In this document: one piece after another, positions 1-5,682 of the stretch
How positions within the stretch are numbered: the stretch's first letter is position 1
Layout of the letters: the number at the start of each line of letters is the position of its first letter
NCBI GenBank assembly: GCA_043810775.1
Contig: JBDRNU010000008.1
Span: forward strand, 1 to 11,475
Length of the DNA: 11,475 nucleotides
Reading direction: 5' to 3'
Source: an archaeon
Lineage (GTDB): Archaea; Nanobdellota; Nanobdellia; Pacearchaeales; GW2011-AR1
The notes under the pieces: generated by a model
Database searches by the model: none
Seen by the model: only the letters and a program-made list of their open reading frames with translations
Told to the model about the DNA's origin: nothing
Made by a program: the position numbers and the translations under genes

Positions 1-147
1 AAAGGTGTGGTTTGTTGGAACTTTAGGATGCTCAGAAATGCTCATCCACATCCTAAAGCTTCAGGAATGAAAATTCCTGATAGTCATCAAAAATCTTTGA
101 TTTTTGAGAGATATGGTTTTCGCTTAGCATTTCTGACATAAAAATAG
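1..147. mobile_element. Composite palindromic repeat, copy 1 (left part cut by window edge); putative non-autonomous IS200/IS605-like miniature element
   Basis: Matches 3019-3165 at 145/147 nt (mismatches at 9 and 142). Contains nested inverted repeats: TCAGAAATGCT(32-42)/AGCATTTCTGA(126-136), CTTTAGGATG(21-30)/CATCCTAAAG(49-58), TCAGGAAT/ATTCCTGA (61-80) and TCAAAAATC/GATTTTTGA (87-107). The repeat is certain; mobility is inferred. Confidence 0.75.
59..109. repeat. Twin bulged-hairpin unit, copy A
   Basis: CT-TCAGGAAT-gaaa-ATTCCTGA-t-AG followed directly by TC-a-TCAAAAATC-ttt-GATTTTTGA-GA. Same architecture as 5070-5123. Confidence 0.85.
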
Positions 148-226
148 CTATTCTTTAAGGGATGGATTATTTGCCCCCATCTCTGATAATATCATGATTT
201 CCCCCTCTTTTTATCAAGACTTTTAA

Positions 227-475
227 TTATTGTTTATCTTTATGATAAAAATCTAAGAAAACTAATTTATTTTCTTCTTTTAAATAAACATAAGATAATC
301 TAAAGGATCCTATGTAAACTTCTCTTGTACCTTTTCTTACATATCTTATTGGTTTACCTATTTCAGGATTTTCTATTATTTTTTTAATTTTCTTCTTTAT
401 TTGATTAAGAGTAGAATTATCTTTTACTTTAGAAATTCTTCTAAGAAAATTCTCTTTTCTTTCAATATTTAACAT
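227..475 (-). CDS. Type II toxin, RelE/ParE/StbE superfamily
   Basis: 82 aa, basic. ENPEIGKPIR..RKGTREVYIGSFRLSY..LVFLDFYHKD matches the RelE-type pattern. Start overlaps the antitoxin stop. Confidence 0.85.
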   Translation of the reverse strand: MLNIERKENFLRRISKVKDNSTLNQIKKKIKKIIENPEIGKPIRYVRKGTREVYIGSFRLSYVYLKEENKLVFLDFYHKDKQ

Positions 476-738
476 TTTTCCAGTTCTTCTAGAAATTTGT
501 CAGCAGATTGAGAAATAAACTCTCCCTTTTCATAACTTTGCCATGCTTCTTCTGTTCTTTTTGCAAAATCTAAGTCTTCTCTCATTTTTTCAGTTACTCC
601 ACTAACTTTTTTTAAGATAATCCTATCATCATCTTTAATTATCAACAACTCATCACCTTCTTTTAAATTATTTCTCATTTCTGAAGGAATCACAATCTGC
701 CCTTTTGAACTTATCTTTGTTACGTTTATGCTTACCAT
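469..738 (-). CDS. AbrB/MazE/SpoVT-family DNA-binding antitoxin
   Basis: N-terminal TKISSKGQIVIPSEMR..LKEGDELLI swapped-hairpin motif and an acidic C-terminus. Lies directly upstream of the RelE-like gene. Confidence 0.9.
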   Translation of the reverse strand: MVSINVTKISSKGQIVIPSEMRNNLKEGDELLIIKDDDRIILKKVSGVTEKMREDLDFAKRTEEAWQSYEKGEFISQSADKFLEELEKC

Positions 739-2414: not shown

Positions 2415-2448
2415 GGAAAGTTAGCCAAGAAAACCTTGGTTGTCAGGC
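2415..2448 (+). promoter_or_regulatory. Conserved 5' leader motif upstream of rpsJ (uninterrupted copy)
   Basis: GGAAAGTTAGCCAAGA-AAACC-tt-GGTTGTCAGGC ends 2 nt before ATG 2451 and recurs at 5054-5142. It can form an AGCCAAG/CTTGGTT stem. Confidence 0.65.
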
Positions 2449-2450
2449 AA

Positions 2451-2987: not shown

Positions 2988-3165
2988 TCAAAAAGTTCCT
3001 TGAGTTTACCACACCTTAAAAGGTGTAGTTTGTTGGAACTTTAGGATGCTCAGAAATGCTCATCCACATCCTAAAGCTTCAGGAATGAAAATTCCTGATA
3101 GTCATCAAAAATCTTTGATTTTTGAGAGATATGGTTTTCGCTTAGCATTTCTGACATAATAATAG
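2988..3165. mobile_element. Composite palindromic repeat, copy 2 (apparently complete; ends approximate)
   Basis: 3019-3165 is near-identical to 1-147. The left hairpin TA-CCACACCT-TAAA-AGGTGTAG-TTTG (3007-3032) is enclosed by AAAGTTCC(2992-2999)/GGAACTTT(3035-3042). It interrupts a reading frame. Confidence 0.75.
3077..3127. repeat. Twin bulged-hairpin unit, copy B
   Basis: Identical to 59-109. Confidence 0.85.
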
Positions 3166-3546
3166 ATGAACTGGAAATAAAAATAGAAACAGATAAGCGC
3201 CTAGAAGGGCAAAGAGGTGGAGCCTCTCTTGAATATCATGATTATAGCAAAATAAGTGCAAGAGTAACTGATGGGGTAATTTATATGGATGTGTCCTATT
3301 TATGGTGTTATGCTCTAGCGCCTAAAGGAATAGAAATACCAAGACCAGAATCTAATAATTAACTAGCCAGCCTCAAAAAAGGAAAAAGGGAAAAAATATC
3401 CCTCATTTCCCCTTAGTCTTTTACAAAATAGCTTTATCATTAGAATTTATAAGCATATAGCCACTTCTAAATATATGTTTAGAAAATTACTTCTAAATAT
3501 ATTCCTTAACCATAATATTTAAATAGTGATTCAAAGCTACATACTC

Positions 3547-4649: not shown

Positions 4650-4731
4650 GCCCACGTCGCATAATGGTATTGCACGGGACTGGAACTCCCGGCCCGTTTT
4701 GGGCGTCCAGGTTCGATTCCTGGCGTGGGCG
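4650..4731 (+). tRNA. tRNA-Ser(GGA)
   Basis: Acceptor GCCCACG/CGTGGGC with discriminator G. D arm GCA/TGC. Anticodon stem CGGGA/TCCCG with loop CT-GGA-AC. Long variable arm GCCC/GGGC. T arm CCAGG-TTCGATT-CCTGG. No CCA encoded. Confidence 0.97.
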
Positions 4732-4869
4732 TAAATGGGATTGAACGCAAGTGAAATCCCATCCCACCAGGCTTTGGGCAGAGAATTCTGAAAGTGAATA
4801 AAGGTTCGATTACTTTAATTCATAAGAATTAAATGTCACAGAGAATTTTCATCAGAAAATTGTCAAGTG

Positions 4870-4883
4870 CCTGGCGTGGGCGT
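4870..4883 (+). repeat. Direct repeat of the tRNA-Ser 3' end (att-like)
   Basis: CCTGGCGTGGGCGT is identical at 4719-4732 and 4870-4883, 151 bp apart. Confidence 0.85.
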
Positions 4884-5053
4884 CGAGCGATTTCACGAGG
4901 CAATCTTTATTAATTAAATAACAAGTGAGGTCGCGAGTTTTCTCATTTCTTATTAATTAAATTAAGGTAACAAAGAAACTCAAAGCTTAGCTTTAAATAC
5001 TAATTTAACTATATATATATAATAAATATTAATTAAATATAAGCTATCTAAAG

Positions 5054-5142
5054 GGAAAGTTAGCCAAGACTTCAGAAATAGAAGCATTTCTGAGAGTGCT
5101 CGGAAATCCAAAGATTTCCGACAAAACCGTAGGTTGTCAGGC
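5054..5142 (+). promoter_or_regulatory. Second copy of the rpsJ-type leader, interrupted by a 54 bp insertion
   Basis: GGAAAGTTAGCCAAGA (5054-5069), then the insert, then AAACC-gta-GGTTGTCAGGC (5124-5142) directly before ATG 5143. Confidence 0.65.
5070..5123. mobile_element. Twin bulged-hairpin unit, copy C
   Basis: CT-TCAGAAAT-agaagc-ATTTCTGA-g-AG (27 nt) plus TG-c-TCGGAAATC-caaa-GATTTCCGA-CA (27 nt). Absent from the homologous site at 2430/2431. Confidence 0.75.
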
Positions 5143-5682
5143 ATGGCAAAAAAGGTGAATAAAAAGCAATTATCAGGAAAAAGCTGGAAATCAATTATCC
5201 TTGCACTGGCTATAGCTATAATTCTTACAGCATTTATATTTCAGGTTATTAATACTATATACGAACGTCCTGAATGGACAGACTTCTGCCCAGAATCCCC
5301 TCCACTCTATCTAGATGAGCAAAACTGCACTCTAGCAGGAGGTATGTGGACAGGTTCAGCATTTACAGACCCTTCAATGCCAAAATCAACTGGCTACTGC
5401 GATATAAACTATAAATGCCAAAAAGAATATGAATCAGTAGATGTAGTCTACCGGGAAAAAGTATTTATTATTGCAGTAATCACAGGGCTTATAGTTTTAA
5501 TAGTAGGAATAATCTTAGGGCTACAGAGTGTTTCTCTCGGGTTAATGGGCGGCGGGGTCATCACTATGTTCATAGGAACAATTCAGTACTGGGATAGGCT
5601 TGGAAAATATCTAAGGCTGATAATTCTCGGAGTAGTCTTAGCAATTCTAATCTGGATAGGATACAAGAAACTAAAGCACTGA
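5143..5682 (+). CDS. Hypothetical membrane protein (4 predicted TM segments, Cys-containing extracellular loop)
   Basis: One N-terminal and three C-terminal hydrophobic segments, with four Cys in the loop. ATG 5143 preferred over TTG 5134. Confidence 0.8.
   Translation: MAKKVNKKQLSGKSWKSIILALAIAIILTAFIFQVINTIYERPEWTDFCPESPPLYLDEQNCTLAGGMWTGSAFTDPSMPKSTGYCDINYKCQKEYESVDVVYREKVFIIAVITGLIVLIVGIILGLQSVSLGLMGGGVITMFIGTIQYWDRLGKYLRLIILGVVLAILIWIGYKKLKH

Follow-up and report, generated by a model that had tools for sequence, protein, structure and literature searches.

A structure-conserved twin-hairpin DNA unit, exactly gained or lost at many sites in a small archaeal genome

The window, meaning the whole stretch of DNA analysed here, is the entire contig C8 (11,475 bp) of an archaeal genome of 995 kb, assembled in 26 contigs, with a G+C content of about 33% and a completeness of 80%. 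A membrane-protein gene (5144-5682) is preceded there by a promoter-proximal 5' leader (5053-5143, plus strand) that ends at the start codon and whose two halves (5053-5069 and 5124-5143) are separated by a twin bulged-hairpin unit (copy B, 5070-5123, plus strand). In the first hairpin (5070-5096) a CT/AG foot (5070-71 with 5095-96) carries an 8-bp stem (5072-79 with 5086-93), with a bulged base on the 3' side at 5094; in the second (5097-5123) a TG/CA foot (5097-98 with 5122-23) is followed by a bulged base on the 5' side, at 5099, and a 9-bp stem (5100-08 with 5113-21). Two further copies on the plus strand, A (59-109) and the identical A' (3077-3127), belong to another sequence type of the same design, and in all three the sequence reads as the initial annotation had described it. 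Copies A and A' sit within a direct repeat of 147 nt (1-147 = 3019-3165, 99% identity). An inner hairpin with arms at 48-55 and 110-117 is interrupted by copy A one base beyond its TAAA loop, and this hairpin together with copy A is enclosed by an outer hairpin (29-138, plus strand) which itself follows the design of hairpin 2, with a TG/CA foot, a bulge at 31 and an 11-bp stem (32-42 with 126-136). Together with a long hairpin upstream, the outer hairpin forms a mosaic palindromic repeat, present in full at 2990-3168 (plus strand), where the long hairpin, with a TTAAAA loop, precedes an outer hairpin holding the inner hairpin and copy A'. Two mosaic copies flank a ParE-like toxin and MazE-like antitoxin pair (227-738, minus strand) and the neighbouring secreted-type protein with SNase and lamin-tail domains (1579-2346). 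Elsewhere in the window, an intact tRNA-Ser gene (4650-4731) is directly followed, within 4732-4890, by a partial second T-arm and acceptor 3' strand (4803-4811 and 4870-4882); this partial copy is split in its T-loop by a 58-nt insert (4812-4869), itself a double hairpin with bulges and short feet, whose sequence belongs to another family.

Folded as single-stranded DNA, copy B reaches -13.7 kcal/mol per strand (z -5.6 and -6.0), a stability matched by none of 200 shuffles. The window copies in general fold equally well on both strands as DNA (z -4.8 to -6.0; 0/200 shuffles as stable). The minimum-energy fold of 5070-5123 displays the 2-bp foot in hairpin 2 only, so that the feet of this copy rest on covariation. 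The three copies of two types initially annotated proved to be a small part of the family. A scan of the genome for structure alone, with sequence unconstrained (a 2-bp foot, one bulge and a perfect stem of at least 7 bp, twice and abutting), returned 11 sites, all of them family members and all with TCA...TGA stem bases; the same scan of five first-order Markov genomes returned none in any of the five, and the family is therefore more than a product of chance. When one mismatch per stem was allowed, 12 of 13 sites belonged to the family and the Markov controls gave 0, 1, 0, 0 and 0. A covariance model built from ten distinct copies, which scores copies B and A at 71.7 bits (E 3e-12) and 65.5 bits, respectively, found about 22 separate loci at E below 1e-3, among them truncated copies at both ends of contig C22, long-loop variants, a triple arrangement (C5:22031-22116) and hairpins like hairpin 2 that stand alone. 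Thus further copies with the conserved geometry do exist, in single and triple arrangements as well as in twins. None of 12 canonical copies falls within an open reading frame of 100 or more amino acids; copies occur after genes, between RNA genes and, in many cases, between promoter and start codon.

The unit measures 49-57 nt and consists of two abutting, head-to-head hairpins, each with a 2-bp foot and one bulged base on the inner side. In the ten aligned copies (57 columns) 98.5% of cells were paired, a value inflated by the selection of these copies for perfect stems, and 10 of 21 pairs had changed on both sides; the observed covariation was reached in 0/500 shuffles, and sliding the partners gave pairing in 25-56% of cells. 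The stem differences previously read as compensatory are borne out by these double-sided changes, and the family is one defined by structure. When the model was used to align 76 unique copies, taken from 19 genomes, 1502 of 1554 paired cells were Watson-Crick (96.7%), 23 were G-T, 12 A-C and 17 other. What is conserved is the base of each hairpin, namely the foot, the inward bulge (each bulge being occupied in 71/76) and the first three stem pairs, TCA/TGA, which like the feet are invariant or nearly so; the upper stems covary, the loops are free, at 3 to more than 40 nt, and the foot of hairpin 2 also covaries (C-G 18, G-C 32, T-A 8, A-T 7). Read as its reverse complement, the unit keeps this geometry. 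Such a pattern agrees with a protein that recognises the hairpin bases and with pairing required on either strand, and the rarity of wobble pairs, together with the equal folding of both strands, fits pairing at the level of DNA and not an RNA fold of one strand. The same data bear on two other readings. One would make the unit a structured RNA module (for end protection, as a processing mark or for protein binding) that spreads only with larger DNA duplications. Against it stand the scarcity of G-U pairs, hardly above A-C in number, the presence of both orientations inside one mosaic (C5:4612 and C5:4786) and the lack of any match to the unit in Rfam, whose covariance models, run against the window at E up to 1, matched a tRNA and nothing else. 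We return to its merits below, where the copy beside the RNase P RNA gene is considered. A C/D box sRNA was dismissed separately: a minus-strand UGAUGA in copy A is not kept in the other copies, and the C and D box motifs are not conserved. The other reading takes the unit for a site in double-stranded DNA, either paired operators or a chromatin, segregation or replication signal, in which a dimeric protein reads the central TGA-N6-TCA. The invariant TCA/TGA inverted repeats at the centre and at both ends would suit such a site, as would the many copies lying between promoter and start codon. Duplex binding, however, gives no reason to expect the upper stems to change in a compensatory way, loops of such unequal length would shift the half-sites apart, and copies are also found after genes and between RNA genes; we accord this reading very little probability.

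Filled and empty versions of the same sequence could be paired at six kinds of site, with exact ends and without target duplication at any junction, so the proposal of an exact entity, there or not there with no duplicated target bases, is upheld at all six and in environmental DNA contigs. The leader in front of the membrane-protein gene is one such site. It is an element of about 38 nt with its own A/T-rich promoter-like box, ending 0-2 nt short of the start codon in five genes unrelated to one another, filled at 5053-5143, C25:21123-21207 and C3:60790-60878, and empty at C23:5274-5305 and at 2415-2449 (plus strand), the latter preceding the gene for ribosomal protein S10 (2450-2762). Removal of 5070-5123 was predicted to restore this leader, and the unit-free versions in the window and on C23 agree. 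All five copies are found in this genome; the search for the leader in 60 relatives gave 0/60. In the three filled leaders the twin is 82-93% identical (45-50 of 54-57 positions) and the flanks 85-95%, so that twin and flanks are about equally diverged and a single insertion followed by copying of the leader suffices; the three were accordingly dropped as evidence for independent insertions. At a second site, the stem flanking copy A is uninterrupted at C25:115033-115060 (with a variant at C10:34223), as expected of the empty hairpin left on removing 59-109; the mosaic at C10:34161 is a variant of the same mosaic without any twin, and in G001, which belongs to the same genus, one contig carries the TAAA-loop hairpin both filled and empty. 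An apparent orthologous pair, C25:115033 and G001:C41, proved to be two copies of one repeat and was set aside. The first hairpin of the mosaic is empty at 3008-3029 and filled, in reversed orientation, at C5:4612; two mosaic junctions empty in this genome are filled in G001, G019 and G030; and a tRNA-trailer repeat is empty at C2:19168 and filled at C26:46465. This last repeat, of two small hairpins just past tRNA 3' ends, occurs at C26:46400-46560, C2:19168, C26:10042 and C7:36934, with the twin in one of the four. Excision junctions had also been suggested as something to look for, and in Logan contigs of two DNA runs from one study (X1 and X6) position 3076 is joined directly to 3128, skipping exactly the 51 bases of copy A' (CT to GA). 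The depth of this joint, 10.2 in X1 and 13.1 in X6 against about 2-3 for unique parts of the window, leaves its source copy ambiguous, and these short contigs may reflect another copy or strain rather than an allele of the 3077-3127 locus. In all, these comparisons have shown the twin to be a discrete, structure-conserved DNA unit that is exactly gained or lost at many sites.

How the copies multiply is a related matter. The claim that the unit nests in or beside the loops of other stems holds, the unit being multi-copy, extragenic and nested in other palindromes. Identical twin copies in two genomes, G025 (5 copies) and G012 (10), lie inside larger multi-copy repeats, and much of the copy number may be due to spread of the mosaic. 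The flanks point the same way. A purine stands at -1 in 92/95 copies and T at +1 in 80/95, among the matches listed, many of which share one mosaic context (52/57 and 42/57 in another set, where many again share it); the logo of purines at -4 to -1 and T at +1 is largely explained by that context, and it is no proof of target specificity, since the commonest flanks are the mosaic's own junction, continuing into a further hairpin of the same type. That the majority of identical copies travel within larger repeats is what the RNA-module reading would ask for, but duplication of larger units leaves the exact presence or absence of 49-57 nt at six kinds of site unexplained. A further reading dispenses with any dedicated enzyme and has the palindromes copied and lost through template switching, hairpin processing and gene conversion among A/T-rich repeats. 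No transposase has been linked to the twin, hairpins of the same type occur singly, in threes and mixed with other palindromes, and in two genomes (L063 and L073) hairpin 1 is identical, loop included, and hairpin 2 different, which suggests recombination between units. Such processes would nevertheless have to produce boundaries exact to the base at unrelated sites, where the flanking direct repeats needed for slippage are absent, and to hold the geometry of foot, bulge and TCA/TGA constant over many genera, a constancy that points to protein recognition. We therefore think this enzyme-free reading improbable and retain that of an element moved as DNA.

The mosaic repeat in which the window copies A and A' reside is present in about eight copies (window 1-150 and 2990-3168, C5:3618, C5:4598, C9:13289, C10:34161, C11:35440 and both ends of C22). 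It is 150-230 nt long and built of palindromes set within one another, whose stems covary and whose single-stranded linkers are conserved; one copy lies directly upstream of the tRNA-Trp gene. As to tRNA genes themselves, ARAGORN detected only 29 in this genome (G000), eight of them with introns of 33-68 nt, and made one call of a 'stop' anticodon (tta) with an intron at C11:40010-40098; the tRNA-Lys intron (C9:27800-27922) is 49 nt long and forms a double A/T-rich hairpin. A further reading has to be weighed here, that of an intron-like RNA element which would invade loops within RNA genes' hairpins and be cut out by the splicing endonuclease of archaea. It would account for units in or beside stem loops and could draw on the 58-nt double bulged hairpin in the T-loop of the partial tRNA-Ser copy (4812-4869), on a weak match of the covariance model (E 0.26) at C6:32376, where the site resembles a T-loop, and on the tRNA-Lys intron, a double hairpin of 49 nt. 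Archaeal introns of the bulge-helix-bulge type have two 3-nt bulges on opposite strands, with a 4-bp helix between them, at the exon-intron borders. The twin has no such motif: its two bulges, of 1 nt each, share the central strand, and there is no pairing between its ends and the flanking sequence. Moreover, the tRNA-Lys intron is not matched by the covariance model and most copies lie in ordinary intergenic DNA, so that of all the readings weighed this is the least probable.

Comparison with G001 provides orthologous loci, the contrast of filled and empty alleles that the initial annotation had called for. The twin is missing in G001 at three of four syntenic loci filled in this genome: the orthologue of the gene behind 5070-5123 has neither leader nor twin, the spacer matching C15:95604 is without the twin and some 65 further bases, and the site corresponding to C10:25101 has no twin. 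For the C9:5265 locus no syntenic match was found in G001. A lack of further copies, or a filled state fixed among relatives, had been named beforehand as grounds for giving up the proposal; further copies were found instead, along with filled/empty differences that include these three of four loci, and on both grounds the proposal stands. At the fourth locus the twin is retained. There the RNase P RNA gene (archaeal), the twin unit, a T-run and an intron-bearing tRNA-Phe gene follow one another on one strand (L003, C15:143000-146500, at 1296-1910), in an order conserved in the same-genus genome, with the twin 4 nt downstream of the RNase P RNA gene. The two genomes agree in every stem, foot and bulge of this twin; both loops have changed and the adjoining spacer has diverged. 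This strict conservation could mean that the unit is, at this place, a functional RNA or DNA signal rather than selfish, and it counts in favour of the RNA-module reading. Two copies lie 4 nt past stop codons, ahead of T-rich tracts, several others just upstream of ribosome-binding sites, and a metatranscriptome contig holds a variant of the host mosaic (the contigs of RNA run X2 cover neither 5070-5123 nor the twin copies). Weighed against the near absence of wobble pairs and the exact gains and losses described above, an RNA module as the whole account seems unlikely to us, and we keep to an element moving as DNA of which some copies serve in transcripts.

Beyond this genus the unit is patchy. 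The covariance model was positive in 19/61 relatives (E up to 1e-3) and in 20/151 genomes drawn evenly across the order (E up to 1e-5), and within single genera of the order sample the counts vary (1/5, 1/5, 2/4, 0/11). A public scan with a strict IUPAC pattern fixing few bases per arm, over one genome per prokaryotic species, matched at least 114 stretches; among the matches listed, 77/80 come from metagenome-assembled genomes labelled Nanoarchaeota, Nanoarchaeia, Pacearchaeota or Woesearchaeota. Both stems have at least 7 Watson-Crick pairs in 122/134 of the matches listed, and in 113 of those 122 the foot of hairpin 2, which the pattern does not demand, is also paired. The contigs labelled 'Methanosarcinales' and 'bacterium' among the matches listed hold true copies and may be mis-binned. 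A match in Tenacibaculum was discarded as chance, with stems of 4 and 4 pairs, and the strict pattern gave 0 matches in viral contigs. The twin family is thus real and patchily distributed across small DPANN genomes labelled Pacearchaeota, Woesearchaeota or Nanoarchaeota, and the keeping of foot, bulge and TCA/TGA geometry across so many genera points to recognition by a protein.

Which protein this may be was approached through the Y1 HUH transposases, whose co-occurrence with the unit the initial annotation had proposed to examine. The association is positive: among the 61 relatives 9 genomes have both features, 10 the twin only, 7 Y1 only and 35 neither, and the corresponding counts across the order are 10, 10, 26 and 105, for genomes that are related and incomplete and in samples that partly overlap; twin and Y1 may both simply track repeat-rich genomes. 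Other results weigh against a direct link. This genome, at 80% completeness, has no match to PF01797; of the nine genomes of the order sample with at least 9 twin matches, Y1 is present in G162 and G146 (there as a fragment only), and none was found in the remaining 7/9, which are incomplete. No twin occurs in the fetched flanks of 16/18 Y1 loci, and at the other 2/18 the matches are weak and 1-2 kb off. The hairpins that do flank Y1 genes in relatives, with a TTTA loop and C-rich/G-rich arms, differ in type from the twin. The inner hairpin around copy A is of their kind, and because of this resemblance the mosaics may descend from Y1-type elements; a BLAST comparison of the host mosaics with the Y1 loci gave a single match of 23 nt. 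TnpB (PF07282) was not matched above the cut-off in any twin-positive genome among the relatives. The Y1 HUH transposase is hence a weak candidate for the mobiliser, a lead rather than a finding. Of the original idea of a BIME-like mobile unit moved by an enzyme encoded elsewhere, the unit itself stands, as structure-defined, exact and patchy; a mobilising enzyme, HUH or other, is conjectural. In relatives L241, L250, L255, L256 and others, Y1 HUH genes stand alone, with no adjacent TnpB, beside TTTA-loop hairpins whose stems vary between copies, and these hairpins may constitute a second, REP-like family.

Overall, judged on sequence comparison, a mobile element appears the best supported of the readings weighed. 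We favour, by a modest preponderance of probability, a non-autonomous palindromic element of REP/BIME-like kind which moves as DNA and some copies of which are kept in transcribed spacers. Such an element, of the REP/BIME or IS200/IS605-end kind, would fold on single-stranded DNA into two hairpins, and the pairing of both 2-bp feet with the central four bases would bring its two ends side by side. A trans-acting and probably dimeric protein would read foot, bulge and TCA/TGA at the base of both hairpins, and would cut and rejoin exactly at the outer feet, so that no target bases are duplicated. If the excised strand were closed to a dumbbell circle, the two 2-bp feet could stack as a 4-bp helix. 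Accessible single-stranded targets would be offered by the loops and linkers of other palindromes, and copies landing in transcribed spacers may be retained as stable RNA hairpins, in the manner of bacterial REPs; candidates for such retention are the copy after the RNase P RNA gene and before the T-run, those 4 nt past two stop codons, and those in 5' leaders. A bolder version is conceivable, and we offer it tentatively as rather doubtful: that this is the first REP-like system of Archaea and mechanistically new, in that the element would consist of two protein-recognition hairpins alone, be excised as a closed single-stranded dumbbell whose junction is paired by its own centre, and enter other palindromes, tRNA-like stems and leaders where these offer a single-stranded loop or linker, with an enzyme other than an IS200-type Y1; the mosaics that it builds would then have a major part in shaping both intergenic DNA and the ends of RNAs in ultra-small DPANN genomes.

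Structure-defined palindromic repeats are well studied in bacteria, and to our knowledge REP/BIME elements have not been reported from archaea. In the literature on DPANN lineages with palindromic, MITE or hairpin repeats, with subscription journals and supplements outside coverage, no such description was found; in PMC3733652 the word 'archaea' appears in the reference list only. The matter has some weight, as genomes of about 1 Mb are thought to be streamlined: hairpins that are mobile or selected in leaders, trailers and tRNA or RNase P spacers bear on the regulation of RNA ends, and the family bears on whether selfish DNA persists in small genomes. Small enough to come near to a bare recognition site, the unit should also serve well as a substrate in the search for the protein that recognises it. 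In practical terms such palindromes break assemblies, and contigs C8 and C22 end inside them.

Among known systems, the likeness to bacterial REP/BIME elements and to REPIN-RAYT is considerable: in either case imperfect palindromes, short and outside genes, are conserved at the base and bulged, and occur in tens of copies (here about 22 loci per Mb), with a variable upper stem and loop held by compensatory change, no target duplication and some copies useful in transcripts. Opposite-polarity pairs and mosaics with other motifs are also common ground, the twin's hairpins abutting with their bulges on opposite sides. The differences are that the host is archaeal, that the hairpins abut without spacer and do not pair with each other, and that a cognate single-copy Y1 gene flanked by twin repeats, as in REPIN-RAYT, was not found. 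PMC3733652 names as a REP feature a conserved tetranucleotide, GTAG or CGTC, that marks one of the palindrome's ends; the twin carries neither tag, its feet being CT/AG and T-S/S-A, followed by TCA/TGA. The integron attC site, too, is defined by a folded single strand with extrahelical bases rather than by sequence, but an attC site folds into a single long, imperfect hairpin that contains R and L boxes and lies where cassettes end, beside an integrase platform, whereas the twin is two short hairpins scattered in intergenic DNA, an architecture that on inspection sets it apart. Classical bacterial MITEs (Correia/NEMIS, RUP, ERIC, BOX) are bounded by the terminal inverted repeats that a DDE transposon uses, and they duplicate their targets. 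The twin resembles them in being small, non-coding, multi-copy, intergenic and foldable, and departs from them in the absence of target duplication at six types of site. The ends of IS200/IS605 elements (IS608 type) are single-stranded bulged hairpins recognised by a Y1 HUH enzyme that acts as a dimer, each monomer taking one hairpin; neither excision nor insertion duplicates the target, and gene-less derivatives of this family include the haloarchaeal PATEs. Bulged hairpins, junctions without duplication, and the presence of Y1 genes in relatives all recall this family. Conversely, the twin ends at its hairpin feet and IS200/IS605 elements end some bases away; a fixed target of 4-5 nt is not established for the twin, many of whose flanks are copies of one mosaic context; the hairpins beside Y1 genes are of another type, and TnpB was not found in twin-rich genomes. 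Compared as a possible miniature element, the twin has ends that match those of no full-length element at local Y1 loci. With neither a GTAG/CGTC tag nor a cognate Y1, and with ends unlike those of local Y1 elements, the unit fails the defining tests of both REP/REPIN-RAYT and IS200/IS605; its nearest analogues are bacterial REP/BIME, REPIN-RAYT and the ends of IS200/IS605.
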